Part shown: positions 9,279 to 50,957 of the stretch, piece after piece
How positions within the stretch are numbered: the first letter of the stretch is position 1
How the letters are laid out: each line of letters opens with the position of its first letter
Assembly: GCA_903851365.1 (NCBI GenBank)
Contig: CAINOB010000002.1
Coordinates: forward strand, 12,051-76,050
DNA: 64,000 bases
Direction: 5' to 3'
Source: an uncultured Bacteroidota bacterium
GTDB lineage: Bacteria; Bacteroidota; Bacteroidia; Bacteroidales; UBA12481
Translations under genes and position numbers: made by a program
Notes under the pieces: generated by a model
Seen by the model: only the letters and a program-made list of their open reading frames with translations
Told to the model about the DNA's origin: nothing
Database searches by the model: none

Positions 9279-12170
9279 TTACCTTGCCAGGCTTTTATTG
9301 AATGATTCCGGCGGACCGAGGTATGACTTCTTAACCCCACCTGTATTTATTATCAGTTTATCGATTACAATACCCGGATCAACCATCCAGATTTTCAGGG
9401 TATGAGCGCCTTCCTTATCAATATTCAGTTCGGTTTGCAGGGTCATCAGGTTCTCCATTTCACTACGGTTCCCGTTCTTGTAAGCCACCAATTGCGGCTT
9501 GTTGTCATCAAGCGCCACAGCAACCCGTAACCCATAGTCTGAGTTAATGCGGAAGGATGGAATGCAGTTGAACTGTAAAGAAGCTTTCCCCGTCGTGAAA
9601 GCAAATATGTCGTACTCAAGGCGCGGCGAACCGGCTATTATCTGGTCGGGGTCAATGATACTGGCAACTGTTGGTGGCAGTACGGTAACGGAATTTCCCG
9701 TTCTGCCCAGACCTTCAATGATGGTCCACCCGGCTCCCTGTCCGTTGATTTTCCTCGAAAAGTGTTCCGCCTCGATTGATATATATCCGTTGCTTTCTAC
9801 AAATCCTTTTACATCAATGGGAGCTGGTGAAGCGGGATTGAAAATGGTAAGATTGAACTCCCGGCCCATCCCTTCATTTTCGGCCGATGAGGACTCTTTG
9901 AAAAATATTTTACCCGGTACAGCGATTCCTTTTGGCGCTTTATTCCAATCGATCGAAACCCAAATCCTTTTTTCATCGGAAATGACACCCGATGTTACGC
10001 TTAAAACGATCCAATCAGCAGAAGACTTTGATGACCAGTAGATGACACCGGTTCCGGTATTGTACAGATCGATGAACCTCCGGTCCTTGCTGTAAACGCT
10101 GAACCCAGGTAATTTTGCCGTATCACCGCCTTCGGCAATTGCCCGCAATGAAGGTTCACCATCCCCGGAGTAACAACTTAGCGGGGGCATGTCCCACTGG
10201 TGCCACTGTGCACCCCAGGGCCCGGGCAGCGAAGCCATATGGTCCCATTTGTTTCCTACGGTAACCAGCTCTCTGTTATAATGGTAAATCAGTTGATTGA
10301 TTTCATTTTCCGCTTCCTGTGCTTTCGCGGCATAGCTTGCGGCACTGCTCCTTTTCTGTGCACCATAAACATTGCTCTTTTGAGCATTCAACACCTTAAT
10401 ATTGTGGAGGGCCGTACCCTTGACGTTGTAAACCACCATCTCGAAAAAGGCATCTTTCTGTTCTATGGGCAACGATTCATATATTTTGTCCACCTGATTA
10501 ATTAGTGATTGATAGGCATCAATCCTGATCTGTGCCTCGTCATTATAATTATCCAAGCTGAACCATTCCCAGCTAAGTTTATTATCGCGACCATTCCACA
10601 GAACCATGCTTTCCGGGCGGCGGGCATATCCCAGCTCATAATGTTTGCCCATGATTTCTGCAATTGCGGCAGCATGTTCCGGGCCAAAGTCACGGGTTGC
10701 CCATTGTTTGATAAACTGCTGTGAATTTTGATGGTCCCAGGTGGAAATGTCCCAGGCCATCTGCATGAAATATTCGATATTGATCTCTGCCGGCTTGATA
10801 TCTCCCACGTTAACCACCCAAAGTTTTTTGGCATCGAAATCATAAGCCTTTTTCATCTCTGACCACGTCAAGGCCAATGGAGTGGTGCAGGTCCAGGTGT
10901 ATGCAGATGTGGCGCCATTGAGCCACTGGAAGTGGTAATAGATGCCCGATCCGCCCGATCGCTGCTGCTCCTTCTGGTTAGGCAACTGCCTGATATTTCC
11001 AAAATTATCATCCGGCCAGCAGATGGTGACATCATCTGGCACTTTTAGGCCCTGGTTATACAGTCCCAGCACCTCGGTATAGGGTATCAGCACCTGCGGT
11101 ACTTTTGTGATATCTTTATTTACCCATTTCCGGAGGATACTTCGCTGGTCCGCAAAAATCCGTTCAAGTACCGGAAGCGTGATATCGGACCCTGCCTCAT
11201 CATCTTTACCGCGTTTACCCATGGTATACATGTTTTCATATCGTCCGTTGGCTTTTACGCGGTCTTCCCAGTATTTGTAGATATGATCCCGGTTTTTAAC
11301 GTAATCCCATGGTTGCCCGGGATACTCCTTGTCCCATTCGGCGCCGGCGATATTGTTCCTCAGCATGGGCTCGATATGCGAAGAACCCATGATTATTGCA
11401 TATTCATCGGCCACCACTTTATTTTGTTCATACTGATTAAACGGCTTGGTTTGTACCTGCATGGCGGGCCAGACAAGATTTGCCTTCAACCGAAGCAGAA
11501 GCTCAAATATCTTGCTGTATGTTGTGGGCCCGATACCTAGTCCTTCCTGAGGAGCCAGTATATTTATCGCCCATGGCCTGAGGCCCCACATTTCATCATT
11601 GATAAAGATGCCGCGGTATTTTACTGATGGGGATTTGAGAATGGTTGTTCCTGCTTTTACTATTAATTCAGAACGCTTAAGGGGGGGTACATCGGCAAAA
11701 TAATACCAGGGCGATACGCCGATCAGTTTTGATAATTCGAAGATTCCATAGGCTGTACCCCGTCGGTCGCTCCCGGCAATTACGAGTGCCTTTGAGATCC
11801 CAGGGAAGGGATTATCGACCGTTTGAGTCAGGCAGCTTTCCCACTGGCCCTTTACCCCCGATACGTCGATTTTTCGGCTTGAAATCAGTTTTTTGATGAT
11901 TCTGCTGCGATCAATGGATCCGATGATCACGCAATAGGGAATGGGTTCCGTTTGATTGGTTATCAGCAAAGGTTTATATCCGGTGACGCGTTCCACATCA
12001 TTCCGGAACAAACCCGCACAAAGTTTCACGGTAGGGTAATCCTGCTCATCGATCAGGATAATGGCAAGATTCTGTTTAGTTACCAGCTGAAAATCCTGGG
12101 CCGATGCCGGAGCGATTATCAATGTTGCAAGCACAAAAAAGACCAGGCGCGTGAATATTTGGATTTTCAT
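9279..12170 (-). CDS. GH115 family alpha-glucuronidase, secreted
   Basis: 963 aa with a signal peptide. The block GSDRRGTAYGIFELSKLIGVSPWYYFADVPP and the overall length are characteristic of GH115. Confidence 0.8.
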   Translation of the reverse strand: MKIQIFTRLVFFVLATLIIAPASAQDFQLVTKQNLAIILIDEQDYPTVKLCAGLFRNDVERVTGYKPLLITNQTEPIPYCVIIGSIDRSRIIKKLISSRKIDVSGVKGQWESCLTQTVDNPFPGISKALVIAGSDRRGTAYGIFELSKLIGVSPWYYFADVPPLKRSELIVKAGTTILKSPSVKYRGIFINDEMWGLRPWAINILAPQEGLGIGPTTYSKIFELLLRLKANLVWPAMQVQTKPFNQYEQNKVVADEYAIIMGSSHIEPMLRNNIAGAEWDKEYPGQPWDYVKNRDHIYKYWEDRVKANGRYENMYTMGKRGKDDEAGSDITLPVLERIFADQRSILRKWVNKDITKVPQVLIPYTEVLGLYNQGLKVPDDVTICWPDDNFGNIRQLPNQKEQQRSGGSGIYYHFQWLNGATSAYTWTCTTPLALTWSEMKKAYDFDAKKLWVVNVGDIKPAEINIEYFMQMAWDISTWDHQNSQQFIKQWATRDFGPEHAAAIAEIMGKHYELGYARRPESMVLWNGRDNKLSWEWFSLDNYNDEAQIRIDAYQSLINQVDKIYESLPIEQKDAFFEMVVYNVKGTALHNIKVLNAQKSNVYGAQKRSSAASYAAKAQEAENEINQLIYHYNRELVTVGNKWDHMASLPGPWGAQWHQWDMPPLSCYSGDGEPSLRAIAEGGDTAKLPGFSVYSKDRRFIDLYNTGTGVIYWSSKSSADWIVLSVTSGVISDEKRIWVSIDWNKAPKGIAVPGKIFFKESSSAENEGMGREFNLTIFNPASPAPIDVKGFVESNGYISIEAEHFSRKINGQGAGWTIIEGLGRTGNSVTVLPPTVASIIDPDQIIAGSPRLEYDIFAFTTGKASLQFNCIPSFRINSDYGLRVAVALDDNKPQLVAYKNGNRSEMENLMTLQTELNIDKEGAHTLKIWMVDPGIVIDKLIINTGGVKKSYLGPPESFNKSLAR

Positions 12171-12179
12171 GGGTTCAAA

Positions 12180-14447
12180 TTATTTGATGATAAAATCAGG
12201 TTTGGTATCGCCCTGATACAGGATAACCTCTTGATCCTTGCTGATATCGATCCTGTAGCAGCCTTTTTCGAGCTCTACTAATTTAGTATTGTATTTACTT
12301 TCGATTCGAGGTGTTCCATTCATTGCCGGACAAATTACGCAGGGTTCGCCCGCCAGGCTCCTGATTCTCACGAAGCTCGTTATTCCGTTTACGCGGCTGG
12401 CACTGATAAGAAATGCTCCTTCAGTTCTGAGATTATGAAAAGCCACCTCTTTCCAACCGTCAGGCAAAGCCGGAAACACCCGGATTTTGTTGCCCCAGCT
12501 TTGCAGAAGCATATCCTGGGCGCAGGTATTGTAACTCAGTGATGTTTCGATACATGGAGTGGAAAGGTAGTAGATGCCGTTTTTTCCCAGTTTTTCATTT
12601 TCCACCTCTTTGTACAGAATATCATTCATACGCTGAAGAGCCAGGTTACCCAGGCCCAGGGCTGCGGCTGCCGGAGAGGATTGTGATGCTCCCATTTTTG
12701 GCATGGTGAGGGGTTGGAAATATCTCACCGACCTTTCAAGCAGGTCTTTGTTTTTGTTGTTATCGATATTTTCAAGATAGAGCGGATAGATCATCATCAG
12801 GTGTGACATATGCTGATGATCTTTGGGAGCAGGGTAGCCGTTTCCAAGCATATACCCGTTTTCATCGGCCGAATAATCCACCAGTTGATTCCTGATCTTT
12901 TCCCATTCGATCAGGAGTGGATCATCAATTTCTAAAATGCGACAACTCTCGATCAGCCTCATGCATCCCCATTTCAGCAGGGCCAGATCGAAATTACAAT
13001 CGCTGTAAATTCCTGATTCAGGCGAAAAGGTTGGAGGGAGATGCAGTTTGCCGTCATCGCCGGTAAACAGCAGGTGTCGATAAAGATTGACACTCCGTCG
13101 GAGCAAAGGGAAAACAGTGGCCTTCAGCATTTCCTTGTCCATTGAATACCGGTAATGTAGCCAGCAATTATTCAGCAGCCAGGGAAGGCAACCCACCATT
13201 TCGCGATACCTACCGTCGCCATCCCTTTTCCCTTTCAGGTCGAAGGCTGTGGCCAGTGGGAGCAGCGCAGAATCGCTTTGCCACTCACTGGGAACAACGT
13301 TTTTGGTCAGGTTCTCCTGGTTGCGTTGAAGGCACTCAACGAGGGCCTCACCGAGATGCAGCCTGTTTGCTGTGTAAACCGGGAAATGAGCCGTTTGGGT
13401 ATTAAAATCATGCGTACTGTAAGGCCAGGGCCCGCCGGAGTTCCACATGCCGGGGGTATCAATGTATTGTGCACCGGGACGGGTGCAACAGGCCAATCGG
13501 TATACATTATTCCAATAGAACGTTTGCCCGACAGGATCCGGGAAGGTGATAAAACTTTCAGGGTAATAATTGTGCCACCAGGCCCGGTGCTGGTCTCGCC
13601 ATTTCTTCAGGCTTGTTTTGGTTTTTTCCGTTGCCAGCAAAATGGCACTAACTGCCTCACCAGCTGATTTTTTATCGGGGAAACTATTTTTAATCGTAAT
13701 CAGCAGGGTAGTTGAGTTTTTTGCCGTTTGCTCCACTTTCCAGGCTGTGGTATAATCGCCACCTGCAGTCAGGTCCTGAACGCCAGCAATTATCTCCTCC
13801 TGTTTTTCCACTCTATGCTCCGGATTTTTCATCTCCTTATAGGGTGCATAAGCTTGACCGTAGGTTTTATCGCCGGGTTTTCCACCCCTCGACCCTTTGG
13901 CTTCAAACGGGTGCCATTCCCAGTCCGTAAGCTCTTCTCCACCAGAGGCTTCCATGCTGGTATAGATAACATCATCGTGCCTGTGGACAAAATGTGCTAT
14001 AATCAGGCTTCCGTGGCTGGTATTTATTTGGCCGGTCAGTTCGGCATTAAAGAGGTCGAGTCTGAGGTCGCAGTCCATGATTTCGCCTTTGGATTTCATC
14101 AGGAAATATCCGATCTGATAACGGGGGCGGCTATAAGCGGTCCATCCGTAAGTGTCATCGGCATGGTCGTGCACATCAGTTCTGAAAACCTGCAGCCGGA
14201 TCTTGTATTGTTCCATCCAGATCATTGATCCTATCAGCCCGTTTCCAAGATGGGGAGCTTCTGTCATGCCTGAAGGGATCTTTTTCCAAAGGAGATCATG
14301 GTTTTTCATCATCTCCTTCCAGTTTACATGTGCGAGGACCTGGCTGGCGCCTTCCGGCATTAAAAATGAAGCAGGAAAAACCATTGCCCCGGCTGCTGCG
14401 CCTGCTGATTTCTTAAGAAAAACCCGTCTGTTGATAGGTCTTTTCAT
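12180..14447 (-). CDS. GH95-like six-hairpin glycoside hydrolase with a twin-arginine (TAT) signal
   Basis: The N-terminus INRRVFLKKSAGAAAGAMV is TAT-like. HLGNGLIGSMIW resembles the GH95 N-domain motif. The C-terminal block IRVFPALPDGWKEVAFHNLRTEGAFLISA resembles the GH95 C-terminal pattern. It is more divergent than the canonical GH95 at 32155..34491. Confidence 0.5.
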   Translation of the reverse strand: MKRPINRRVFLKKSAGAAAGAMVFPASFLMPEGASQVLAHVNWKEMMKNHDLLWKKIPSGMTEAPHLGNGLIGSMIWMEQYKIRLQVFRTDVHDHADDTYGWTAYSRPRYQIGYFLMKSKGEIMDCDLRLDLFNAELTGQINTSHGSLIIAHFVHRHDDVIYTSMEASGGEELTDWEWHPFEAKGSRGGKPGDKTYGQAYAPYKEMKNPEHRVEKQEEIIAGVQDLTAGGDYTTAWKVEQTAKNSTTLLITIKNSFPDKKSAGEAVSAILLATEKTKTSLKKWRDQHRAWWHNYYPESFITFPDPVGQTFYWNNVYRLACCTRPGAQYIDTPGMWNSGGPWPYSTHDFNTQTAHFPVYTANRLHLGEALVECLQRNQENLTKNVVPSEWQSDSALLPLATAFDLKGKRDGDGRYREMVGCLPWLLNNCWLHYRYSMDKEMLKATVFPLLRRSVNLYRHLLFTGDDGKLHLPPTFSPESGIYSDCNFDLALLKWGCMRLIESCRILEIDDPLLIEWEKIRNQLVDYSADENGYMLGNGYPAPKDHQHMSHLMMIYPLYLENIDNNKNKDLLERSVRYFQPLTMPKMGASQSSPAAAALGLGNLALQRMNDILYKEVENEKLGKNGIYYLSTPCIETSLSYNTCAQDMLLQSWGNKIRVFPALPDGWKEVAFHNLRTEGAFLISASRVNGITSFVRIRSLAGEPCVICPAMNGTPRIESKYNTKLVELEKGCYRIDISKDQEVILYQGDTKPDFIIK

Positions 14448-22610: not shown

Positions 22611-22739
22611 AGTTTTATATTTTTGACGTACAAATATATATTATTCATACGTCAATTTCAAATTTATTAGCTGGCATTGTTTGTTGCATATATGGAGATT
22701 TTAGACTAATTTTTGGCTATTAAATCTAAACTAAAAACC

Positions 22740-38906: not shown

Positions 38907-40436
38907 TTATTTCAATGCGCTGCGCCCCTCAACTTTACTCTTTTCCAGCAGCGCCTTCAATTCGGCAACGATCTCCGGGTGTTTGAAATAGAGATTCACT
39001 GTTTCCCCTGGATCGGTTTCGAGGTTGTAAAGCTGGCCCGGTGCATCGGGCGAATTGTCAGGAAGGGCGAAGGGTTTGAGCTCGGGATTGTTGTAGTTAT
39101 TCCCGCCCGAGCCGCGATGATCGAGGTATTTCCAGGGGCCCTTGCGGATGGCGAGCGCCAGACTGATGGTCTGATGCAGGGTGTATGGGCGGATACTGTT
39201 ATCACTCTTTTTGCCGAGCAGTAAGGGAAGAATATCAAAGCTGTCCTGGGCGGCGCTATCAGGCAGAACGGTGCCGGTAATAGCAGCACATGTCGCCATG
39301 ATATCGGTGAGGCAGACTGTTTCATCGCTCGTTGTGCCGGATGCGATTTTACCTGGCCAGCGAACGATGAAGGGAACCCGGTGGCCCCCTTCCCACTGAT
39401 CGCGTTTCATCCCGCGCCAGGGCCGTGCCCCGTCATGGTCATAGTCGGCACGCATGTGAACCACTGCTGTAGTTTCCGGACCGTTGTCGCTGGAAAACAT
39501 AACTATCGTGTTGTCTGCCAACGCAAGCTGCTCGAGAGTTTTCATCAACTCACCCACGATGTAATCGAGTTCATGGATGAAATCCCCGTGGGGTCCGGCC
39601 TTTGTGCTGCCCTGAAACTGCTTTGAGGCGAAAGAGGGCAGATGCACCGCATTCATTGCGTGGTATAGGAAAAATGGTTTATCCGGCTGATTTTTTGCGT
39701 GTTGTTCCAGGAACTCCCGGCTCTTTTTCAGGAAAACCATATCCAATTCTTCCAGGTCATAGTTTGGGGCGATCATGCCCTCGCGGTTGTCGTTGGCATA
39801 CGGGTGTTTGGGCAGCTTCGATTTGTCGAGCATCCCGGTGGGAGGTACCGGAATGCGATCACCATCAATGAAGGCATAAAGAAAATCAGTGGCCGGGCAG
39901 CATGCAGTACCGAAAAACTGGTCGAAACCCCGATTAATCGGCCCGTCCGGAATTGCCCGTGAATAATCGATCATCTTCACGCCTTCAACGTCTTGTTTCG
40001 TGATGCGCTGCCCATCCTTGTCAAAGAAACTCAGTCCGACATGCCACTTGCCTGTCATCGCGGTGGCATATCCCTGGTTGCGGAGCATCTGCGGCAATGT
40101 CAGCTGATCTTCAGTGATGAGGCAAGGCCCACCTACACCGGCAAATACCCCTTTATAGGGGATACGGAAGGCCATCCGGCCTGTCAGCAGGCCATACCGG
40201 CTGGGTGTAGAAACGGTGGACGGAGAATGCGCATCGGTGAACCGGATACCTTGCTTTGCAAGTCGATCGAGGTTTGGTGTGGCGACTTTGGATTCCGAAT
40301 TGTAGCAACCGATATCACCATAGCCAAGGTCGTCGGCGAGAATAATTATGATGTTGGGTTTCGCCTGCTTTGGCGTATCAGCAGCCTGAGAAGCCAATGG
40401 GGTGAGCAGGAGAGTGGTGAGAAGGGTTGATTTCAT
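38907..40436 (-). CDS. Sulfatase family protein, apparent Ser-type (S-T-P-S-R) formylglycine motif, secreted
   Basis: Signal peptide present. Sulfatase blocks NIIIILADDLGYGD, AHSPSTVSTPSRYGLLTGR, GKWHVG and SDNGPE. The codon at 40209-40211 is TCT (Ser) where Cys is usual. Confidence 0.85.
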   Translation of the reverse strand: MKSTLLTTLLLTPLASQAADTPKQAKPNIIIILADDLGYGDIGCYNSESKVATPNLDRLAKQGIRFTDAHSPSTVSTPSRYGLLTGRMAFRIPYKGVFAGVGGPCLITEDQLTLPQMLRNQGYATAMTGKWHVGLSFFDKDGQRITKQDVEGVKMIDYSRAIPDGPINRGFDQFFGTACCPATDFLYAFIDGDRIPVPPTGMLDKSKLPKHPYANDNREGMIAPNYDLEELDMVFLKKSREFLEQHAKNQPDKPFFLYHAMNAVHLPSFASKQFQGSTKAGPHGDFIHELDYIVGELMKTLEQLALADNTIVMFSSDNGPETTAVVHMRADYDHDGARPWRGMKRDQWEGGHRVPFIVRWPGKIASGTTSDETVCLTDIMATCAAITGTVLPDSAAQDSFDILPLLLGKKSDNSIRPYTLHQTISLALAIRKGPWKYLDHRGSGGNNYNNPELKPFALPDNSPDAPGQLYNLETDPGETVNLYFKHPEIVAELKALLEKSKVEGRSALK

Positions 40437-42445
40437 CGAAGTAAATTAATCTCCTGTTTATCAGTCGGTTTTGTAATGCCGGGCCAGTCATCGGTACGGA
40501 ACGGCACAGCAGGCAGGTTTTCCTTGTTGTAAAGGTTGCATACCGGATTATCAGCCCACCCATATCGGACAGCTACAGGGGCGGGAACCTGAGGTGAAGA
40601 AAGCAATACGGCTGATCCGTCAATTACTGCATTTGCCCAGACGAACTTCCTATCGGCACCGGCAATCGCAAATCCGGTTAATTTATCTCCTTTGGCGATG
40701 AGCCCGCTTTGGGCGTGATCAAAAGTGAGCCTGATACCTTTGGGAGTAATTTCCATGGATTTGTACCATGGTCCCGACCATTCGATATTCTTTCCGTACG
40801 TGTTGGCCAGAGCGCTTAATGCCAGCCGGCGTCCAACTTCCAGTTTGTTTCGAGGATGGATGTTCGCTGCATCACCGATATCGATGGCCATGGCGATACC
40901 GCATCCGGGCATCGCTTTTGCGGCTACAGCCTGTGCTTCACGCAGTTCTGCCCAAGCGCTTTCTTGCGGCACATCAGATGTTTTCATGAAATTGGCCAGT
41001 GAAACGATATGGAATCCGAAGTCGCCGACACCGAAGCGGGCGCGCCAGTCGGAGATCATCGTTTGGAGCAAAGTGCTGTATTGATAGGCCCTGTCGGCGT
41101 TACTCTCGCCTTGGTACCAGATGGCTCCCTTAATGGCAAAAGGTAAAAGGGGCGCGATCATTCCGTTGTACAGCACCGAGCAGACGTTTGGGTTACCGAT
41201 CAGCGGGGCTCCGGTGGCAGCGCGGGCGGCAGTTTCCTGAACCCGCCACAGACCAGCAAGTGTGATGGCAGAGGATTCATCTCCGGATGGGTAGGCCTTC
41301 ATTTGTTCAGCCGGGCCGAAAAAACCGCCGCCTCCGGAATTCACCACTCTCATGGAAATTATGTTTGTGCCTGGTTTAATCACCGTGGCCGGCACTTTGT
41401 AGATTCGCGGCTTATCAAAGTTATCTGTGTGACCCACAGGGATTCCGTTAACCCAGGTAATATCGCAGTCGCCGATTGTACCAAAGCTGAGGACGACCTC
41501 TTTGCCGCTCCAATTGGAAGGCACTTCAAATGTGTGATGCACCCAGACAACGCCTTCATAACCGGGTATTCCGCACTTTTGCCAGTCAGCGGGCATGTTT
41601 GCCGTTTTCCAGGAGGATACATCGGTTTCCGTTTTGAACCAGGCATTTGTGGTCCCAGGGTCATGGGTTTGGTACCATTTATCCATTACTGCACCGAGCT
41701 GATCTTTTTCGGGAGAGGCTGTCACCTCTTTCACCCGTTCCAGGTCGGATGCGAAATCTGACAGCGGAGCCAGCGCTCCGGCACTGGTCCACGCCTCGCA
41801 GACTGTACCACCCCAGCAAGTTTCAATAAGGCCGATCGGAACATTAAGTTCGCTGTGAAGGTCCCGGCCGAAGAAATAGGCCGCGGCTGAGAATCCTCCC
41901 GAGGGGCCTTTTATGATGGTTGCCGGACTGCATAGCTGCCAGCTGCAACTGAGCGTGGCTTCCGGCGTGTAGGCAATCTTCTGGGGCACGGTCAACAAGC
42001 GGATCCCTGGATAATTAGCAGCAGCGATCTCGTCGGGTACCCTGCACAATCCGATGCCCATCTCCATGTTCGACTGGCCGGAACAAATCCATACATCACC
42101 GACGAGAATGTCGGAGATTTGAGATTTCAATTTGCGATCGGTCGATTGCACATTGAGTACCCGGCCTTTTCTGCTTGCCGCCATGGGATCGAGGCGGGCC
42201 ATCCATTTACCGTCGGCTGCCGCGGTGGCATTTTTCTTTTGTCCCGCAAAGCTGACTGTGACCGTTGCACCGGGCTGAGCCCATCCCCAGACAGGCACCC
42301 TGAAATCGCGCTGCAGAACAGCATGATCGGCGAAAAGAGGATGCAGCAGTGGTTTTTCATCAACAACGGAGGCGCTAACCATGATGGTAAAAGCGAAGAG
42401 CAGAAGGCTAGTAAGACAAAAAGCGGAAAAATATTTTGAAATCAT
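40433..42445 (-). CDS. Sialate O-acetylesterase-like (SASA/DUF303) carbohydrate esterase with inserted beta-sandwich domain
   Basis: Signal peptide present. The GDVWICSGQSNME motif and length are typical of Bacteroidota 9-O-acetylesterase-like enzymes. Its stop overlaps the sulfatase start by 4 nt. Confidence 0.75.
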   Translation of the reverse strand: MISKYFSAFCLTSLLLFAFTIMVSASVVDEKPLLHPLFADHAVLQRDFRVPVWGWAQPGATVTVSFAGQKKNATAAADGKWMARLDPMAASRKGRVLNVQSTDRKLKSQISDILVGDVWICSGQSNMEMGIGLCRVPDEIAAANYPGIRLLTVPQKIAYTPEATLSCSWQLCSPATIIKGPSGGFSAAAYFFGRDLHSELNVPIGLIETCWGGTVCEAWTSAGALAPLSDFASDLERVKEVTASPEKDQLGAVMDKWYQTHDPGTTNAWFKTETDVSSWKTANMPADWQKCGIPGYEGVVWVHHTFEVPSNWSGKEVVLSFGTIGDCDITWVNGIPVGHTDNFDKPRIYKVPATVIKPGTNIISMRVVNSGGGGFFGPAEQMKAYPSGDESSAITLAGLWRVQETAARAATGAPLIGNPNVCSVLYNGMIAPLLPFAIKGAIWYQGESNADRAYQYSTLLQTMISDWRARFGVGDFGFHIVSLANFMKTSDVPQESAWAELREAQAVAAKAMPGCGIAMAIDIGDAANIHPRNKLEVGRRLALSALANTYGKNIEWSGPWYKSMEITPKGIRLTFDHAQSGLIAKGDKLTGFAIAGADRKFVWANAVIDGSAVLLSSPQVPAPVAVRYGWADNPVCNLYNKENLPAVPFRTDDWPGITKPTDKQEINLLR

Positions 42446-42447: not shown

Positions 42448-44838
42448 TCAGGGTTTATTAAAGTTGATTTGCCAGGAGACCTCCCCATTATCCGGGCGCT
42501 CAAGGATGATTTGTACCAGCCCATCGGCGGGGTGTTTTTGAAGTTTTGCCTTTGCCCCGGAAGCTGTTACGCGGGTTGCTTTGCTGCCATTGCCGGCCAC
42601 AACGATTTTGAAAGGTTCGCCGCCGATCACCTTGGCTACGCCTGACAAACTATTTCCTTTGGCGTCCCACTTAACATTGGCCAGATCCACCCAGCCTTGA
42701 AGCACATGGCGGTTAGTGGATAAAACCTGCGGATTCGATTGAACCTTTCGGATGGAGAGCATGGCGCAATGGGTAGGCCCTAAAAGTTTCTCAATTTTTG
42801 CGGTACCGGAATACTTGCCGACTAACGAGTCCGACCAGAATTCATAAACATAATAGGATGCAGCGGGATCGAGTCCGATGGCTCCGGCAACATGTTCACC
42901 GCTGAGTGCCGCCGAAATCATATCAGTTCTGGCCGTGTCGGGATTGAACAATGCCACCTGATGCCACTCGGGCGTCAATTCGAGATCGTACACACGCGGA
43001 TTGGCAATGCCGGTAAAGGCATCCAGGGGACGTGCGCTGTGCGGCTCACGATACAGCGGATAGATGCGTGTGACATCATGGAGGATCTCCGGCGTGAACA
43101 AACGGAAAGACGTTGCGAGTTCCAGTCGCCCGCTGGTTAGAAAAATCATGGTGAGGAGCGATTGGCGTACTTTGGGCGTGCGGTTATGTACCGCTTTGCT
43201 GTCGGGGTAGTAGTTGAACACCACGCGGTTTTTATACCAGCGCAGGCCGCATGTGGTCACCATGCCGGGTACATACTCGTTCGAGTCTCCCCAAACCCGC
43301 TGCATGTCCACCAAGCCCGCGGTAACGTCCAGCATAGGCCGGCCGGTTTCCCCCAGATTACGCTCGTGTATGAAAGCATCCGGGCCCAACCCTTCGCGGC
43401 ACAGACGGAACACTTCGCGGTAGGCAAAAGCAGTAGTGGCATATTTGTTTTCGAAACCTCCCTCCGGCCGCCAGCCGGTCTCGGGGTAGTCGAATTTGAT
43501 GCCGGTCATACCGTCGTTCTTAAGCCGTTGCCAGGTCGACAGAACGTGTTTCTGAAAATCCGGATCGGTATAGTCGTAGGTTACTAACGGCTGATGATGC
43601 GGATGTTTGACTTGCAGCCGGGAAATATCGTTGAACAGCATGTGGCCGGGGAAGGCCCGGGCGTAATCGTCTGACGGCAGGCCAACCTGGAAGTAAGTGA
43701 ATGGGATGCCGCCACGCGCTTTTAGTGCTGCACACCACTTGGCAAATGTTTCATACGGGGCGACCAAATGTCCATATTTCGACCAGTGCGCATCATCCCA
43801 CCACCCCTGTTCCGTATTGCCGTCCTTATAGCAATAGGTATCCGGCTCCAGGCGGATGGCAACTTTGGTATATTTGGTAATGCCCGCCTTTTGCCCCATC
43901 TCCAGCTCTGAAATCAACGCCACGCTGTTATTGATGTCGCCGAGTCCGCTCAGCGCTCCCACCGCCCAGCCACATAATGTTGGGAAATCATAAATGTTAG
44001 GTCGTGCATTGTTTGCCACCCGCATGGCAAGGCCATAGGTTTCAAGAGCAATAAAAGGATCAGGCTGCGTGACATCAAGATAAAAGTTGTCTTCTGAAAA
44101 ATAGGTTTCCCCCGGATTCACTAAACGACCCACAGGGTCCTCAGCCCTCATATCAATTTTACCGTCACGCAGGGCAACCCATTTCCCAAACTCTTTGTTA
44201 GCCAGACCACCCCACACCAGCGACAACCGTTTCCCATCGGCAAAACACGTTAATAGCAGGCTGTTTGGACAAGCCCGGTTCAGCCCCTTCTCGATACGCG
44301 GGACATCGGCACCCGCAGCCCCGTTGAGCGTTTGCGGCACCTCCAGCAACTTTCCGGACAACACCCGTCCATGCATCATCGGCGAAGCCTTCATCAATCG
44401 GGCTCCCTGCGGCATGATATTCCGTATGCCAAAACCCATGACTACACCCCCCCTTCCATCATACACCGCAAAACTGAAGATATATACCGGGATCGACCGG
44501 GTCCCCGGATGCTCCATCTCAACTACCAAACGGTGTCCGTGGCCAAGCGCATCATTGACCTCCTCCTGTTTCCCTGTGAATCTCATACCATCGGTATTGC
44601 CCCATGAATCCGCTGACACTCCAGCCTGGTCAATAATCAATTGCCCGGTTGCCTTGTCGGTAATCGTATACATGCCATTGGACATATCGAATGCCAGGGA
44701 AACAATTTCATTGGAAAGGACTACCTGACCAGACGTTTCATCCTGATTCAATTCAATGGCAGCCATCTTTGCGGGAGCAAAAACCAAACCTATTGACAGT
44801 ATAACTGATAAAGAGAGAATTCGCCTGATGTTGATCAT
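42448..44838 (-). CDS. Putative glycoside hydrolase, alpha-galactosidase-like (clan GH-D TIM barrel), family uncertain
   Basis: The start at the ATG 44836-44838 (MINIRRILSLSVIL, signal peptide) overlaps the upstream stop by 1 nt (TAATG). The blocks FPTLCGWAV, MTGIKFDYPETGW and MQRVWGDSNE resemble the strand-end motifs carrying the nucleophile and acid/base in GH27/31/36-type barrels. Confidence 0.45.
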   Translation of the reverse strand: MINIRRILSLSVILSIGLVFAPAKMAAIELNQDETSGQVVLSNEIVSLAFDMSNGMYTITDKATGQLIIDQAGVSADSWGNTDGMRFTGKQEEVNDALGHGHRLVVEMEHPGTRSIPVYIFSFAVYDGRGGVVMGFGIRNIMPQGARLMKASPMMHGRVLSGKLLEVPQTLNGAAGADVPRIEKGLNRACPNSLLLTCFADGKRLSLVWGGLANKEFGKWVALRDGKIDMRAEDPVGRLVNPGETYFSEDNFYLDVTQPDPFIALETYGLAMRVANNARPNIYDFPTLCGWAVGALSGLGDINNSVALISELEMGQKAGITKYTKVAIRLEPDTYCYKDGNTEQGWWDDAHWSKYGHLVAPYETFAKWCAALKARGGIPFTYFQVGLPSDDYARAFPGHMLFNDISRLQVKHPHHQPLVTYDYTDPDFQKHVLSTWQRLKNDGMTGIKFDYPETGWRPEGGFENKYATTAFAYREVFRLCREGLGPDAFIHERNLGETGRPMLDVTAGLVDMQRVWGDSNEYVPGMVTTCGLRWYKNRVVFNYYPDSKAVHNRTPKVRQSLLTMIFLTSGRLELATSFRLFTPEILHDVTRIYPLYREPHSARPLDAFTGIANPRVYDLELTPEWHQVALFNPDTARTDMISAALSGEHVAGAIGLDPAASYYVYEFWSDSLVGKYSGTAKIEKLLGPTHCAMLSIRKVQSNPQVLSTNRHVLQGWVDLANVKWDAKGNSLSGVAKVIGGEPFKIVVAGNGSKATRVTASGAKAKLQKHPADGLVQIILERPDNGEVSWQINFNKP

Positions 44839-47318
44839 TATTGCTCTATGTTTTGAATATTGATAGTACCTGATTGTAAATCCTTTGCCCGGCATTGAAC
44901 GGATATCGTTCCTTTCCCTTTCGGACGGATAGTCAGCAGCAATCTTCCTTCGTAAGCTTCGCGTTTGTTTTGTTTGTACAATTCATGACTGAACTGGTTT
45001 CCCGAATCCAATCCGATCAATTCACCCGCGCCAGCTACATCAACAGTTATCTCGTTTTTTGCTAATGGACAGCGTGTGCCCTTTTCATCCTGGATCTCAA
45101 GGGTAAGAAAAACAAGTCGTTCGCTTTCCGGGCCATCGGATTTCCATTCCTCTTTTAAACCCAGTTTTTTTGGTTCACCCGCCGTTTTTAATGTATGGGT
45201 GGCGACTATCTGGTTTTTGTTAAAGGCTTTTGCAATCAGTTCACCCTGTTTATAATTAACAAGATAGATGGCCTGATAGGTATTTGGATTCACTGCCTTT
45301 TTCCCAAGGCTTTTACCGTTTTGATATAACTCAACTTTTTCAGTGTTGCTGTATACAAAAACCGTATCCACCTCCCCCGGATTAAAATTCCAGTGCGAGG
45401 CAACGTTGTAGCTGCGCCACTCGAAGTCGTCTTTTACTTTCAGGTTTACTGCGATGTGAACCATCGGTTTTTCCGACCAAAATGCCTGCCAGTAGTAATA
45501 CAAGGGTTTTTCGAAACCGGCGATATCAATCAGTCCCCATTCCCAGCCTCGACGGGGCCAGCCGAGCGCTTCTCCTAAATAATCTATCCCCACCCACAGG
45601 AACAGGCCGACAACATTTGGATTATCGCGCACAGCAAGCCAGTTTTCGAGAGTCAGGTAGTTCTCAGCGCCAAGCAGAATCCGGTTTGGATAGCGGGCAT
45701 GTTCTTCGCGATAATGCTCCTTAAAATACCGATCGGGATAATTATATCCGGCGACATCCATGGTGTCGAAAAATCCATTAGCATTTGCCCAGGGCGACCA
45801 ATCGCAAGTGGCTGTTATCATGCGGGTATTATCCTCCTCTTTTGCCCAATCGATAAGCTTTTTCAGGGTTTTGGGCCCATCAGGATATCGCTGGTCAGGC
45901 ACTTCATTTCCCACCGAATACATAAATACGGAGGGATGATTCCGATCACGCCTGACCATATCCTTCAAATCGGTTTCTGCCCATTGGTTGAAGAAAATGT
46001 GATAGGTGTATTTGTTCTTACCTGCCGGATCTTCCGTCTGGCCATAGTGCCAGGTATGGTTCCATTCATCAAAAGCTTCCGCCATCATATACATACCCTT
46101 TTCATCGCACACCTCAATAAAGGCAGGGTCAACCGGTCCGTGTGTGCGGATGGCATTGCAGCCCTGCGCCTTCAGCTTGTCAAGCCGGTATCGCCAAACG
46201 TCCTTGGGGACTGCGGTTCCAAAAGAACCGGCATCTTTGTGGAGGCATACCCCTTTAATAATCACTTTCTCTCCGTTTACAACCAGTCCCTGATCTTTAT
46301 TGAAAACAATAGTACGAATTCCCACTTTCTGCTGCTCAGTATCGACCAGGCGGTTCTCAATCCACAACTGAAGCTCCAGCGTGTAGAGATATGGGTTTTT
46401 ATCCGACCAAAGCACTGGATTTTTAGCTTCAATATTCAGGGTGGATTTTACCGATGTGTAATCGCTAAGGTCACAGCTATCGATGGCTTTAGTAAAAATG
46501 CCACCATCCCTGCCTTTCAGAAGTGCAACTATCCGGGCTTTTTTCAGCACTTTTTTCCATTCTTCAGGAAACCGCTGGAAATTAACTTTCATGCTCTCGG
46601 TATAATTGTTGGAAATTACCTCGCAATCTACCTTGAGCCTGGCAACGTTGCCATTTGCTGAAATGGTCCTGAAAAAGGTGCCGAAGGATTTAAAATGCTG
46701 CTGCCCGGTAATAAAAAGACGGACGTTCCGGTTAATTCCGGAACCGGTGTACCATCTGCAATTATTAATCAATGAATTATCCACCTTAACGGCAATCACG
46801 TTGGTTTTCCCATCATATTTTAAAAAGGGTGTTAAATCGTATTCAAAAGTGCTGAATCCATACGGACGGTTTCCCAGGTATATGCCATTCAGATATACCG
46901 ATGAGTTCATATAAACCCCATCAAACCTGATTTTAATCCGTTTCCCTTTTGAACCCTCCGGTACTACAAAATGCTTACGATAACAACCGATCCCATAAGG
47001 CAGATAGCCGCCTGATGCACCGCTTGGGTTTGCCTCCGCAAATTGTCCTTCTACCGACCAATCGTGAGGAACATCCAAACGACGCCATCCGGAATCATCA
47101 AACTCAGGGACGTAAAAACCAGGGGATTCGCCTAAATAAAATAGCCAGTCTGCATTAAAGTTCAGCTGCACATCCATCACGGGTTCAGCAATCACCTCTT
47201 TACCAGCAATTTTATTGCTCTTATCACGGAAAACATTTTCATCAACCTGTGAAAAAGCACCCTGGCAGATAAAAGACAGAAGTCCGAACAGCAAAATTAA
47301 TTTACGTGACCAGTTCAT
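44838..47318 (-). CDS. GH2 family glycoside hydrolase (beta-galactosidase/beta-glucuronidase type), secreted
   Basis: Signal peptide present. GH2 blocks WRRLDVPHDWS, VYLNG, IRTHGP and NHPSVFMYSVGNEV (acid/base Glu context). Confidence 0.85.
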   Translation of the reverse strand: MNWSRKLILLFGLLSFICQGAFSQVDENVFRDKSNKIAGKEVIAEPVMDVQLNFNADWLFYLGESPGFYVPEFDDSGWRRLDVPHDWSVEGQFAEANPSGASGGYLPYGIGCYRKHFVVPEGSKGKRIKIRFDGVYMNSSVYLNGIYLGNRPYGFSTFEYDLTPFLKYDGKTNVIAVKVDNSLINNCRWYTGSGINRNVRLFITGQQHFKSFGTFFRTISANGNVARLKVDCEVISNNYTESMKVNFQRFPEEWKKVLKKARIVALLKGRDGGIFTKAIDSCDLSDYTSVKSTLNIEAKNPVLWSDKNPYLYTLELQLWIENRLVDTEQQKVGIRTIVFNKDQGLVVNGEKVIIKGVCLHKDAGSFGTAVPKDVWRYRLDKLKAQGCNAIRTHGPVDPAFIEVCDEKGMYMMAEAFDEWNHTWHYGQTEDPAGKNKYTYHIFFNQWAETDLKDMVRRDRNHPSVFMYSVGNEVPDQRYPDGPKTLKKLIDWAKEEDNTRMITATCDWSPWANANGFFDTMDVAGYNYPDRYFKEHYREEHARYPNRILLGAENYLTLENWLAVRDNPNVVGLFLWVGIDYLGEALGWPRRGWEWGLIDIAGFEKPLYYYWQAFWSEKPMVHIAVNLKVKDDFEWRSYNVASHWNFNPGEVDTVFVYSNTEKVELYQNGKSLGKKAVNPNTYQAIYLVNYKQGELIAKAFNKNQIVATHTLKTAGEPKKLGLKEEWKSDGPESERLVFLTLEIQDEKGTRCPLAKNEITVDVAGAGELIGLDSGNQFSHELYKQNKREAYEGRLLLTIRPKGKGTISVQCRAKDLQSGTINIQNIEQ

Positions 47319-47329: not shown

Positions 47330-48973
47330 TTATTTCTCTAATCCCTGCTGGGTAACAATGGGAACATAACCTATCTCCAGCCCTTTTGGCGGGGTGACTA
47401 GCAGAGCCGGGTCAATTTCGGCCAATTTCCCAACCAAGGGTTTAGGAAGGTATTCCCGGTTCTTAGTCCAGTTCCGGTGAAGCAGTTCCACCCGCCTTTG
47501 CATTTCTTCACGCTCCGCTTTGGTCAGATCGGCGTTGAGCAAGGCAGGCTGGTCAGCGAACCGATACCAGTAGTAGGTTAACGTGCTGCCGTCTCCAAGT
47601 TTCACTTTGAACGGACCGGCTGCGGGGCCGGGGGTTTTCCAGCAACTCGTTTTTTCATCAGGAGTCACATAAGCCACAGGAGTGCGTGGTTCAGTATTGT
47701 TAAAGGTAACATTCTGAAGTCCGGTTTCAACCGGCACCTCTTTGGGCGACACGGCTATCCACTTACCAATGGTATCATTACCTTCTTTTACCAATTTATA
47801 ATATTCAGGAAGGGTTACAACAGAGCCGTTATCTGTTTTTCTCGTTGTGATAAGCTCACCTGACCAGCGGACCCTGAGGGTTGCCGAATCAGTGACATTA
47901 GCATCCATATAGGAAGTAATATTCAGTAAGGCACGTTTATTCTTGGGAATATGATCGCCATAAAGACTCCAGTTCGACCGGACCCCTTTTTGAAATTTCT
48001 GCATGGTAGCTCCTGCCAGATCAATGGTGCCATCAGCCTGTGCACCTCCTTTAAACCAGGCTTCCACTTTGTCCCAGAGCGCCTTCTTGTTGTATACCAT
48101 CAGACGGTGCAACAGATCTGAATTGCCATCGGCACCCAGGGGGTACTGTGTCGTAGCGATACGGACATAAATCTGGCCTTTAGAGTCGGTAGCTTCAGCC
48201 GAACGTATATGCTGTGTTTCCATCTGAAATGCCTTGTTGGCTTGTGTGGGGCGCTGATCGAGAAACATCCCGCTTAATTTGGGATTTTCAACGGTTGCCT
48301 GGGACCAAAAATAAGGGGTAAAGAAGGCAACCGGGCCCTTGAAATTCGCGGTATTTATAAACAGGGTCCAGCACTGATTCCCGGTAGGAACGTCGGTCCC
48401 GGCAGTGGTGGATTTAGGCTCCGTGAGCGGCAATGGGAGGTAACCGCTGCCAAACAATTCACCGCAAGTGCCCTGCTTCAGGTTTAAGCCATCGGGAGGC
48501 CATAGAAGCCAGGGACTCAGCTGAGCTGCTCCATATTTTCCTTTATCATTGCTCCAGTCTCTGCCTTGTCCGGCGCCAGGTCCATTAGCCCAACCGGCAA
48601 AGTTCAGCTGCACTCCGCCCATGATGAATTTTGGTGTTGCCGTGGCGTACTCTGTGTCGTTCCACCAGCCCAGACCTCCTTCAACATCGGTATAAAAATC
48701 CTTTTTTGTCAGAGGACTGTTATTCTGAGGAAACATCCACGAACCGAATAAGCCTGATTGAAAACTCCGGCCAGGATACTCTTTTACTAATGGAAAGGCG
48801 GCTGCATACATTGAGTAACCCGCATTGAAAGTGGTGTCAACTTTATCCACCTTCAAGATCATATACCCGCCGATATTGGCTTCGCGGATCTTGTTTTTTG
48901 TGGAGGCTTTATCCTGTGCCGAAACCATAGTGGTCAGCAGTAAGGCGATGATAATGTTAAGTAGGTATTTCAT
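47330..48973 (-). CDS. Uncharacterised secreted protein (family X), no T9SS CTD
   Basis: The ATG at 48973 gives the signal peptide MKYLLNIIIALLLTTMVSAQ; the track start 49051 would overlap the upstream gene. It is a close paralogue of 49008..50957 and ends ...GYVPIVTQQGLEK directly after the shared core. Confidence 0.7.
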   Translation of the reverse strand: MKYLLNIIIALLLTTMVSAQDKASTKNKIREANIGGYMILKVDKVDTTFNAGYSMYAAAFPLVKEYPGRSFQSGLFGSWMFPQNNSPLTKKDFYTDVEGGLGWWNDTEYATATPKFIMGGVQLNFAGWANGPGAGQGRDWSNDKGKYGAAQLSPWLLWPPDGLNLKQGTCGELFGSGYLPLPLTEPKSTTAGTDVPTGNQCWTLFINTANFKGPVAFFTPYFWSQATVENPKLSGMFLDQRPTQANKAFQMETQHIRSAEATDSKGQIYVRIATTQYPLGADGNSDLLHRLMVYNKKALWDKVEAWFKGGAQADGTIDLAGATMQKFQKGVRSNWSLYGDHIPKNKRALLNITSYMDANVTDSATLRVRWSGELITTRKTDNGSVVTLPEYYKLVKEGNDTIGKWIAVSPKEVPVETGLQNVTFNNTEPRTPVAYVTPDEKTSCWKTPGPAAGPFKVKLGDGSTLTYYWYRFADQPALLNADLTKAEREEMQRRVELLHRNWTKNREYLPKPLVGKLAEIDPALLVTPPKGLEIGYVPIVTQQGLEK

Positions 48974-49007
48974 TCGTAAATAATTTATTGTTTCAAGTGT
49001 AATTGGC

Positions 49008-50957
49008 TTATTCCGATTTAATAAACTTAATGAACTTTGAATAAACTCCATTGGTGAAATTCAGAAAATACAGACCATCTGAAAGAAACCTGATATCAAG
49101 CACTTCCCTGGTGTTGTACAATTTTACAGTCTGAATTATTTTCCCCGTTATATCCATTAATTGAAGTTTCGTATTGGTGTCGGGAACGGTCTGCAGTAAA
49201 ATGTTTAAGTAATGCGATGTCGGATTTGGATACACTTCAATTACCGGGGACTTGTTGAAGGCACTACGATCTGTAGAATTTACCTCCGATAATTCCTGAC
49301 GTATAACAATCGGAACATATCCAACTTCCAAACCTTCTGGTGGCGTGACTATCAGGGCGGGGTCAATATCCGCCAGTTTTCCAATCGTGGGTGGAGGCAG
49401 GTATTCACGATCCTTGGTCCAGTTCCGGTGCAGCAATTCCACCCTCCTTTGCATTTCTTCACGCTCCTCCTTGCTCAGGTCGGCATTGAGCAATGCAGGC
49501 TGGTCGGCAAACCGATACCAGAAGTAGGTTACCGTACTGCCATCCCCCAGATTCGCCTCAAACGGTCCGGCTACCGGACCCGGGGTATTCCAGCAACTTT
49601 CTCTGTTTGCCGGAGTAATGTACGCCACAGGGGTTCTTGCGGCAGTATTGCTAAAACTAACATTCTGGAGTCCGGTTTCTGCCGGCACCTCTCCGGGTGC
49701 CACTGCAATCCACTCACCAATGGAGTCATTCCCGGTTTTTACCAGTTTATAATATTCGGGAAGAGTCACCACACTACCGTTGCCTGTTTCTCTCCGTGTG
49801 ATAAGGTCACCTTCCCAACGAACCCTCAAAGTTGAATTATCGGTGACATTTGCATTCATATAAGAAGTAATATTCAGATAAGCACGTTTATCCGCAGGGA
49901 TATCATCAGCATACAAACTCCAGTTTGACCATACTCCTTTATTGAATTTCTGATTATAAGCCCCGGTGAGATCAATGGATCCATCAGCCGGTGCACCTCC
50001 CTTAAACCAGGCATCGACCTTGTCCCACAGCGCCTTCTTTTTATAGACCATCAGGCGGTGCAACAGATCCGAATTTCCATCGGAATCCACAGGATACTGT
50101 GTCGGAGCGACACGTGCATAGGTCTGTCCCTTGGAATCAATAGCTTTAGCGGAACGGATATTTTGCGTTTCCATCTGAAATGCTTTGTTGGCTTGAGAGG
50201 GACGCTGATCAAGAAATAACCCGCCCACTCGTGGATCCTTTGCGGATGCCTCGGTCCAGAAGTAAGGGGTGAAGAATGCAACCGGGCCCTTGAAATTCCC
50301 GGTGTTAAGGAACAGCGTCCAGCATTGGTTTCCGGTAGGAACGGCAATACCTGCCGTAGTGGTTTTCGGCTCAGTAAGCGGCAAAGGCAGATAGCCACTG
50401 CCAAACAATTCACCGCAAGTGCCCTGCTTGAGGTTTAAGCCATCGGGAGGCCACAATATCCATGGACTCAGCTGAGCCACACCATATTTCCCATTTGGAT
50501 TGCTCCAGTCTCTGCCCTGTCCGGCACCAGGCCCGTTTGCCCATCCGACAAAGTTCAGCTGTACTCCACCCATAATAAATTTTGGTGTTTCTGTGGCATA
50601 TTCTGTATCGTTCCAGCAGCCAAGACCTCCTTCAATATCCGTATAAAAATCCGTCACCGGTAATGGGCCATCGTTTTGCGGAAACATCCAGGTACCAAAC
50701 AATCCCGATTGAAAGCTCTTGCCCGGATACTCCTTTACCAAAGGCCATGCTGCAGCATACATCGAGTAACCCGCATTGAATGTTGTGTTCACGCTCGCTA
50801 CCTGCGCAACCATATACCCGCCAATATGGGCATCGCGAATCGATACCACTCCGGAGGTTTTCTCCTGTGCCGTTACAAAGGGGGCTGTCAGAAGGCAAAG
50901 GATAATGGCGAATAAAGATTTCAGAATGTTTTTTTTCGTCATAGGGTTCAGGTTCAT
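49008..50957 (-). CDS. Uncharacterised secreted protein (family X) with T9SS C-terminal sorting domain
   Basis: Signal peptide present. The core is collinear with 47330..48973. The last 77 aa (49008..49241: IEVYPNPTSHYLNILL...GLYFLNF...KFIKSE) are a T9SS CTD. The start overlaps the upstream stop by 4 nt. Confidence 0.7.
   Translation of the reverse strand: MNLNPMTKKNILKSLFAIILCLLTAPFVTAQEKTSGVVSIRDAHIGGYMVAQVASVNTTFNAGYSMYAAAWPLVKEYPGKSFQSGLFGTWMFPQNDGPLPVTDFYTDIEGGLGCWNDTEYATETPKFIMGGVQLNFVGWANGPGAGQGRDWSNPNGKYGVAQLSPWILWPPDGLNLKQGTCGELFGSGYLPLPLTEPKTTTAGIAVPTGNQCWTLFLNTGNFKGPVAFFTPYFWTEASAKDPRVGGLFLDQRPSQANKAFQMETQNIRSAKAIDSKGQTYARVAPTQYPVDSDGNSDLLHRLMVYKKKALWDKVDAWFKGGAPADGSIDLTGAYNQKFNKGVWSNWSLYADDIPADKRAYLNITSYMNANVTDNSTLRVRWEGDLITRRETGNGSVVTLPEYYKLVKTGNDSIGEWIAVAPGEVPAETGLQNVSFSNTAARTPVAYITPANRESCWNTPGPVAGPFEANLGDGSTVTYFWYRFADQPALLNADLSKEEREEMQRRVELLHRNWTKDREYLPPPTIGKLADIDPALIVTPPEGLEVGYVPIVIRQELSEVNSTDRSAFNKSPVIEVYPNPTSHYLNILLQTVPDTNTKLQLMDITGKIIQTVKLYNTREVLDIRFLSDGLYFLNFTNGVYSKFIKFIKSE

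Follow-up and report, generated by a model that had tools for sequence, protein, structure and literature searches.

A large family of secreted proteins encoded among carbohydrate esterases, sulfatases and glycoside hydrolases, and its candidacy as a new glycan-cleaving module

What is the role of a group of secreted proteins that belong to no recognised family but are encoded among glycan-degrading enzymes? The question is raised by a 64,000-nucleotide (nt) stretch of DNA, hereafter the window, from an uncultured Bacteroidota bacterium of the order Bacteroidales (lineage UBA12481; assembly GCA_903851365.1, contig CAINOB010000002.1, positions 12,051 to 76,050 of the forward strand), in which three open reading frames (ORFs), here called A, B and C, encode related proteins of 547, 649 and 627 amino acids (aa). 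Many genes in operons for complex glycans are still annotated as 'hypothetical', and a newly found enzyme family tends to give access to a linkage that resists the enzymes already known. A first-pass annotation had described the three proteins as working parts of polysaccharide breakdown and as candidates for a new hydrolase, lyase or glycan-capture family, and genomic context supports that description. We consider it about an even call that their shared core is a new catalytic module, which would cleave glycans in concert with deacetylation and desulfation.

A pairwise alignment of A and B was gap-free and showed 77% identity across 547 aa. B and C were 35% identical from end to end (E 9e-120), a similarity far above chance on sequence comparison. 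The three are thus related as had been proposed, with A and B as tandem paralogues on the minus strand at the coordinates originally given and C as a much more divergent third member; the shared motif blocks cited at that time were all found in B and C. The mechanical ORF of A reaches 49051. However, Met-27 (48973) opens a typical signal peptide and a homologue with 94% identity to A is also 547 aa long, and the start was therefore placed at 48973, as the first-pass annotation had it. Signal peptides had been claimed for all three proteins, and by-eye reading of the N-termini agrees, each being of the signal-peptidase-I type with no lipobox cysteine. Likewise, the type IX secretion system (T9SS) sorting domain claimed for two of them was located by Pfam-A and NCBIfam scans (PF18962/TIGR04183) at the C-termini of B (residues 575-647, E 2.7e-12) and C (residues 553-625, E 1.3e-11). 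The same scans found no such tail in A, which is therefore not T9SS cargo. The predicted location of A is the periplasm, and that of B, after export, is the cell surface or medium.

The core of these proteins (about 520 aa) had been said to lie outside known families, and this was upheld by the comparisons with Pfam, NCBIfam and PDB. Pfam-A and NCBIfam returned no match to the core of A, B or C at E≤1 except noise, and a scan of 55 diverse members to E = 10 returned YgjK_N alone. As the latter appeared in only 6 of the 55 with a best E of 0.039, it was judged to be noise and rejected as an identity for the core. Against PDB sequences, both a single-sequence phmmer search and a 55-sequence profile matched the T9SS tail only, so that no confident match to a characterised family emerged from Pfam, NCBIfam or PDB sequences. 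The source names of 240 listed homologues are either 'hypothetical protein' or taken from the tail or an accessory domain only, and no published description of the family was found in the literature on DUF3863, neprosin-like glycosidases and new carbohydrate-active enzyme (CAZyme) families in polysaccharide utilisation loci (PULs) or Planctomycetota. Judged by Pfam, NCBIfam and PDB, A, B and C represent a large, previously undescribed secreted family. In its working the core would be akin to the CAZyme modules of PULs or of T9SS cargo, yet it could be assigned to none of the known families compared, and it is therefore regarded as a new family in a familiar kind of setting.

The family is both large and widespread. 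At 90% identity, at least 3,544 clusters match A and at least 1,976 match C. When 1.84 billion representatives of 50%-identity clusters were scanned exhaustively with HMMER, 1,032 passed E≤1e-3 and 310 passed the stricter E≤1e-30, and at least 579 stretches on one-genome-per-species contigs encode a relative. The best 80 of these species-representative loci come from Bacteroidota (Bacteroidales/Porphyromonadaceae metagenome-assembled genomes (MAGs), Ginsengibacter, Cyclobacterium, Lunatimonas, Marinoscillum and Draconibacterium), Planctomycetota (Pirellulales, Gemmatales, Isosphaerales and Phycisphaerae), Verrucomicrobiota, Kiritimatiellota (Pontiella) and Poribacteria. Many of the carriers were sourced from lakes, rivers and sludge.

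To gauge conservation, 109 diverse cores were taken from the 50%-identity representatives. Across phyla, about 45 positions reach a conservation of 93% or more, and many aromatics are invariant. E98 (100%), D239 (99%) and E252 (98%) are accompanied by Q475 and Q492 (100% each), by Q543 and W469 (99% each) and by K115, Q151, D161, D461, Y467 and H499 (95-97%); the near-invariant acids are thus E98, D161, D239, E252 and D461. A, B and C all retain these conserved residues, and E98 and E252 lie on separate predicted strands. Both the level and the kind of conservation across phyla argue for catalysis.

An AlphaFold2 model of A, built on a 55-sequence alignment, was confident (predicted local distance difference test (pLDDT) 88.7, predicted TM-score (pTM) 0.88) and consists of about 27 strands with few helices. 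The N-terminal half alone (residues 27-300) gave a poor model (pLDDT 40.8, pTM 0.33), which fits a core that folds as a whole and not as a chain of separate domains; the core of around 520 residues is predicted to be a single integrated, mostly beta unit. A Foldseek search of the model of A against 350,542 PDB chains revealed no full-length neighbour. Two matches only fell below E 1e-3, namely neprosin 7zvb (E 9e-5, probability 1.00, TM-score 0.44 on the target and 0.23 on the query, root mean square deviation (rmsd) 10) and the GH16 lichenase 3axd (E 5e-4, probability 0.93, TM-score 0.36 on the target, rmsd 11.7). Weaker matches were to YncM, HC7 8pn5 (E 0.02-0.05), the polysaccharide lyase (PL) family 36 enzyme Aly36B (E 0.09), a PL28 ulvan lyase (E 0.2), concanavalin A (ConA) 6xt6, the carbohydrate-binding module (CBM) CBM40 4c1w and the binding domains of botulinum neurotoxins (BoNT). 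The weaker matches are without exception ConA-like jelly rolls, and by them part of the modelled core resembles this fold. Neprosin, the GH16 lichenase, HC7, PL36 and PL28, the best of the PDB matches, are beta-sandwich enzymes that form a cleft, in line with a catalytic role. No match below E 1e-3 was found among the viral structures of BFVD.

Within the window, the members are embedded in two operons (Table 1). A and B sit in a seven-gene same-strand run consisting of a LamG protein, B, A, a glycoside hydrolase (GH) of family GH2, an 815-aa protein, a CE20 acetylesterase and a sulfatase, whereas C follows a 634-aa T9SS cargo protein and precedes a GH95-like protein and a GH115. Spacing is as tight as had been claimed (gaps of 35 nt or less to lectin-like and GH genes): the LamG gene and the start of B overlap by 4 nt, B and A are separated by 34 nt and A and GH2 by 11 nt, whilst in the C operon the gaps are 1 nt (634-aa protein to C), 29 nt (C to GH95) and 9 nt (GH95 to GH115). 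The rest of the window forms a CAZyme island, with two GH127, a GH106, a second GH95, a broken GH78, a four-domain protein (SASA, DUF3863, DUF3864 and DUF1080), a GFO/IDH/MocA oxidoreductase, a xylose-isomerase-like TIM-barrel protein, a BNR/sortilin protein and two M28-type peptidases. In total, at least 14 glycan-processing genes are found within the 64 kb.

The same association was found in other genomes. Neighbours were identified both by tblastn with the proteins of the window and by unbiased clustering of all neighbouring ORFs, and enrichment was assessed with a distance-decay control inside the 80 loci. The most specific partner is a SASA esterase, with 26 genes within 1 kb of a member in 24 of the 80 loci, all on the same strand (0.181 per kb, vs 0.010-0.014 per kb at 2.5-10 kb); it is around 15-fold denser in the first kilobase. 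Sulfatases (15 genes within 1 kb, 14 of them on the same strand; 0.104 per kb vs 0.03-0.05 per kb further out) and GFO oxidoreductases (6 genes within 1 kb; 0.042 per kb vs 0.005-0.011 per kb further out) are also enriched, as is the LamG protein. A homologue of the 675-aa LamG protein adjoins a member in five loci, and fusions of LamG to the core exist. GH78 neighbours a member in three loci. At least one homologue of the glycan genes of the window lies within 10 kb of a member in 42 of the 57 well-flanked loci (those with at least 8 kb of flank).

A closer inspection of Pfam-annotated contigs reveals two arrangements in which members follow SusC and SusD. In one, the order is SusC, SusD, GH127, GH106, LamG, the family, DUF3863/DUF3864, GH20, two GH63-like genes and a sulfatase; in the other, it is SusC, SusD, GH95, LamG, two successive members of the family, LamG and then GH106. 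Other Bacteroidota contigs carry GH106, GH127, GH29, GH31, GH140 and sulfatase genes near members, one of them with GH29, sulfatase, GH31 and GH140 close to a member, and in one genome both subfamilies (that of A and that of C) occur inside a single 40-kb CAZyme island. GH76, FGE-sulfatase and GFO genes lie near a C-type member at one locus. In Gemmatales, the neighbours include an AraC/PBP regulator, an enolase-superfamily dehydratase and a DHDPS-family aldolase. Thus the expectation that homologues elsewhere would be tied to glycan genes is borne out by the 42 loci, by the density of SASA and by fusions, with exceptions that are weighed below.

Fusions were surveyed in 46 long relatives, of which 6 join the core to a SASA acetylesterase, 1 to a GDSL esterase, 5 to ricin-B lectin (2 to a second ricin-B model), 3 to Laminin_G_3, 2 to F5/8-type-C domains and one to CBM6/35; PATR repeats and DUF4214 were found in 5 each, together with T9SS tails and Ig-like spacers. 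SASA-core fusions also occur at three loci. Catalytic CAZyme modules are typically recognised by just this combination of attached CBMs and a partner esterase. Moreover, 6 of 74 loci have tandem copies, and a pair of one tailed and one tail-less (signal-peptide-only) copy was also seen at a locus other than this one. Such paired copies fit two-compartment enzymes better than a surface binding protein.

Taken together, these data point to the core as a catalytic glycan-cleaving module, and a glycoside hydrolase with near-invariant E98 and E252, and D239 assisting, is favoured, the roles of the residues being deduced from conservation. Several observations weigh against this. The Foldseek TM-scores (0.20-0.23 on the query, 0.36-0.44 on the target) are weak, the top matches are peptidases rather than glycosidases, and no GH16-type ExDxxE motif was found at the conserved positions. 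Not one of the 46 long relatives carries a known GH or PL catalytic domain fused to the core, and a large specialised binding module may remain compatible with that. The first-pass annotation had placed the family 'always' inside glycan-degradation operons, which holds for the three copies of the window but not for every homologue elsewhere: around 25% of the well-flanked A-type loci, mostly planctomycetal, have unrelated neighbours, and at most of the C-type loci examined outside this lineage the neighbours are not CAZyme-related. C-type members are often stand-alone genes, with no CAZyme operon at six of the loci. In addition, as the comparison covered Pfam, NCBIfam and PDB, the core may belong to a recent CAZy family that has no structure.

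The absence of GH or PL fusions also speaks for a rather unlikely alternative, in which the core is a large, non-catalytic, lectin-like beta-sandwich that captures or scaffolds glycan bearing acetyl or sulfate groups for the esterases, sulfatases and glycosidases beside it. Its weak structural likeness to ConA-type lectins and CBMs (6xt6, 4c1w and the BoNT binding domains), the abundance of invariant aromatics, the fusion to a catalytic esterase just as a CBM would be fused, and the predicted surface export of B and C by T9SS would all suit such a role. However, binding modules drift fast, and some 45 positions conserved at 93% or more, including Glu, Asp and Gln at 98-100%, would be unusual for one. 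The core is itself fused to genuine CBMs (ricin-B, F5/8-C and CBM6/35), a tail-less periplasmic paralogue adjoins the surface copy, many relatives are stand-alone genes, and the window provides neither a lipoprotein signal nor adjacency to SusC/SusD.

Two further possibilities concern the type of chemistry, and we regard both as improbable. The best structural match suggests a di-glutamate peptidase of the neprosin/HC7 kind, cutting the backbone of glycosylated and possibly sulfated glycoproteins (such as the hydroxyproline-rich glycoproteins and arabinogalactan proteins (AGPs) of algae and plants) whose glycans the neighbouring glycosidases would trim. GH127, GH106, GH95, GH115 and GH2 fit the sugars of extensins and AGPs, two near-invariant Glu (E98 and E252) occupy separate predicted strands, M1/M28 and M28 peptidases with homologues near members in two other loci lie in the same CAZyme island, and HC7 was also among the matches. 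HC7 of Bacillus cereus is a di-glutamate mucinase whose substrates are glycosylated and which makes use of a CBM (PMC13003899). Against this, the 55 members gave no match to Pfam Neprosin (PF03080) even at E≤10 and no sequence signal to any peptidase family, TM-scores are below 0.5 and neprosin is half as large as the protein. The unbiased clustering did not bring out peptidases as recurrent neighbours, and it is with a carbohydrate esterase and a sulfatase that the family is most specifically associated. A beta-jelly-roll lyase (PL7/PL28/PL36-like), cleaving beside uronic acids in an acetylated, sulfated polymer containing rhamnose and glucuronic acid, has a similarly low probability. Jelly-roll lyases use His, Tyr, Gln and Lys, and the core has near-invariant H499, Y467, Q475, Q492 and K115; Aly36B and the ulvan lyase were among the weak matches, and GH115, GH2, rhamnosidases and sulfatases are neighbours. 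Those structural matches are not significant, however, and neither the scanned ORFs of the window nor the recurrent neighbours elsewhere include a GH88 or GH105 unsaturated-uronyl hydrolase. Hydrolysis is favoured over elimination because the three most conserved polar residues are carboxylates and because no GH88/GH105 accompanies the family.

We infer catalysis, substrate and the division of labour among the copies from genomic context and conservation, and the favoured reading, a glycan-cleaving hydrolase, can be set out as follows. B and C would be exported by type IX secretion and begin the cleavage of an acetylated, sulfated heteroglycan at the cell surface, whilst A would stay in the periplasm and continue on the imported fragments. 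The CE20/SASA esterases and the sulfatase would strip blocking groups before or after cleavage, and the exo-glycosidases GH2, GH95, GH106, GH115 and GH127 would complete the degradation. E98 and E252 would serve as acid/base and nucleophile/base with D239 assisting. The substrate may be a polymer containing rhamnose, fucose, arabinose and glucuronic acid (like rhamnogalacturonan II or AGPs, or an algal or cyanobacterial exopolysaccharide), a sugar content proposed because of the known specificities of the neighbouring GH families. A bolder form of the proposal, for which our confidence falls a little short of even, is that the family is a new GH or PL family founding a new structural class, with an integrated 520-residue beta fold, a Glu/Asp/Glu centre and obligate coupling to O-deacetylation and desulfation. 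In a sharper version of this bolder form, the SASA (NanS-like), GFO (NanOx-like) and occasional DHDPS (NanA-like) partners could mean the release of an acetylated acidic sugar, for example a nonulosonic acid, by a non-propeller mechanism.

Table 1. Features of the 64,000-nt window and their positions (position 1 is the first nucleotide of the window).
Feature	Position	Strand	Remarks
Member A, 547 aa	47330..48973	minus	ORF; signal peptide, without T9SS domain
Member B, 649 aa	49008..50957	minus	ORF; T9SS type-A sorting domain at C-terminus
Member C, 627 aa	14477..16360	minus	ORF; T9SS sorting domain; divergent subfamily
E98 of A	48680-48682	minus	candidate catalytic residue, by conservation
D239 of A	48257-48259	minus	candidate catalytic residue, by conservation
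E252 of A	48218-48220	minus	candidate catalytic residue, by conservation
T9SS sorting domain of B	about 49017-49235	minus	PF18962/TIGR04183
LamG protein, 675 aa	50954..52981	minus	Laminin_G_3 (ConA-like) at residues 83-240
GH2 glycoside hydrolase	44838..47318	minus	downstream of A
815-aa protein	42448..44895	minus	no Pfam, NCBIfam or PDB match
CE20 carbohydrate O-acetylesterase	40433..42445	minus	SASA/SGNH fold with inserted GH2_N-like domain
Sulfatase	38907..40436	minus	final gene of the seven-gene A/B run
T9SS cargo protein, 634 aa	16362..18266	minus	upstream of C; no other recognisable domain
GH95-like glycoside hydrolase	12180..14447	minus	downstream of C
GH115 alpha-glucuronidase-family protein	9279..12170	minus	final gene of the C operon
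Four-domain protein, 1,046 aa	56377..59517	minus	SASA esterase, DUF3863, DUF3864, DUF1080/3-keto-disaccharide-hydrolase-like
DUF1080/3-keto-disaccharide-hydrolase domain	56377-56985	minus	
Broken GH78 alpha-L-rhamnosidase	53135-55656	plus	three frames
GH78 piece, frame 2	53243-53743	plus	
GH78 piece, frame 3	53769-55082	plus	
GH78 piece, frame 1	55093-55653	plus	
GFO/IDH/MocA oxidoreductase	61259-62623	minus	
Xylose-isomerase-like TIM-barrel protein	22713-23588	plus	
M28-type peptidase	18364-21723	minus	
M28-type peptidase	30459-32150	plus	
HipA-type kinase toxin gene	35699-36949	minus	

Several of the genes beside the family are themselves of interest. The 815-aa protein represents a second uncharacterised family in these operons, with homologues within 7 kb of members in about six other loci. 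The C-terminal part of the LamG protein (around 430 aa) has no domain assignment and is possibly a third uncharacterised functional module. The pair formed by the 634-aa T9SS protein and C is also present in GCA_942493265, and T9SS tails were found on three neighbouring genes of the window. An hhalign comparison of the family with the DUF1080 domain, the LamG partner, the 634-aa T9SS protein and the 815-aa protein revealed nothing shared beyond the T9SS tail, and the LamG and 634-aa proteins, the two upstream partners, are unrelated to each other. The SASA part of the four-domain protein is a homologue of the esterases of about 405 aa that adjoin members in Planctomycetota and Verrucomicrobiota. 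Its DUF3863/DUF3864 part has a sole match, to the 'uncharacterized protein' structure 3lm3 (E 1e-143), and DUF3863/DUF3864 genes recur in Bacteroidota loci. No SusC or SusD was found among the scanned ORFs of at least 180 aa in the window; related loci in Ginsengibacter and in a lake Bacteroidia MAG do carry them.

The GH78 gene, which diverges from the promoter region of the A/B operon, is split into three pieces, either as a pseudogene with at least two frameshifts or through indel errors in the assembly. A promoter and terminator scan of the operon gave counts equal to the shuffled expectation. GFO/IDH/MocA, xylose-isomerase-like TIM-barrel and DUF1080 proteins are the ingredients of oxidative (3-keto) glycoside cleavage, and the 4-8-fold enrichment of GFO beside members, cited from six loci, could indicate a link of the family to this chemistry. 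One of the two M28-type peptidases is a 1,119-aa M1+M28+PDZ fusion, and the peptidase homologues near members could hint at a glycoprotein substrate. A link to HipBA was also considered and rejected. Helix-turn-helix (HTH) and HipA genes lie directly upstream of members at four loci from two unrelated lineages (L005, 6386-7935; L006, 8261-9966; also L007 and L008), yet these amount to only about two independent contexts and are probably coincidence.

Proteins of unassigned role are common in glycan loci, which tempers the interest of any one of them. This family stands out by its size (around 1,000 clusters at 50% identity in at least 579 species), by its occurrence in three phyla of glycan specialists, by a predicted structure unlike anything solved and by its ties to acetylesterases and sulfatases. 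If catalytic, it would make a new CAZy family and help to explain the turnover of acetylated, sulfated polysaccharides of algae, cyanobacteria and plants in lakes, soils and wastewater. If the bolder proposal were true, a major and so far invisible activity would open acetylated, sulfated algal and cyanobacterial heteroglycans to freshwater and soil Planctomycetota, Verrucomicrobiota and Bacteroidota. The three candidate residues, together with a natural tail-less periplasmic copy, make the family directly testable.

The family shares features with several known systems but coincides with none. Neprosin (MEROPS G3, 7zvb) and HC7 (8pn5) are its best structural matches, and they have in common with it a beta-sandwich, in the family as predicted; the family also offers two invariant Glu on separate predicted strands. 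However, sequence and profile similarity are absent, the core is about twice as long with an N-terminal half that does not fold alone, and its partners are carbohydrate esterases and sulfatases. Enzymes of GH16 and clan GH-B (Fibrobacter lichenase 3axd) offer the second-best structural match, and the family is similarly secreted, encoded among GH genes and carboxylate-rich in its core. It differs in lacking both ExDxxE (its conserved acids are 141 and 13 residues apart) and a profile match, and in being much larger, with an integrated C-terminal half that has an invariant block of its own (WYRFxDQP, Q492, H499). The lyases PL36 Aly36B (6kcw) and PL28 ulvan lyase (6d3u) are alike in fold class, in a context of sulfated, uronic-acid- and rhamnose-containing glycans and in the conserved His, Tyr, Gln and Lys of the family, but with matches that are not significant (E 0.09-0.2), no GH88/GH105 partners and no sequence similarity. 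Surface glycan-binding lipoproteins of the SusE/F type differ from the family in both signal and setting, its N-termini being of the signal-peptidase-I type without a lipobox by eye and SusC/SusD being absent from the scanned ORFs. The closest parallel in organisation is with the CE20/SASA-type esterase enzymes (7kmm, 9h4u), to which the family is adjacent or fused. The core has no SGNH/SASA signature and is a partner rather than an esterase, in an arrangement that mirrors esterase-glycosidase pairs in which deacetylation unblocks the cleaving partner.

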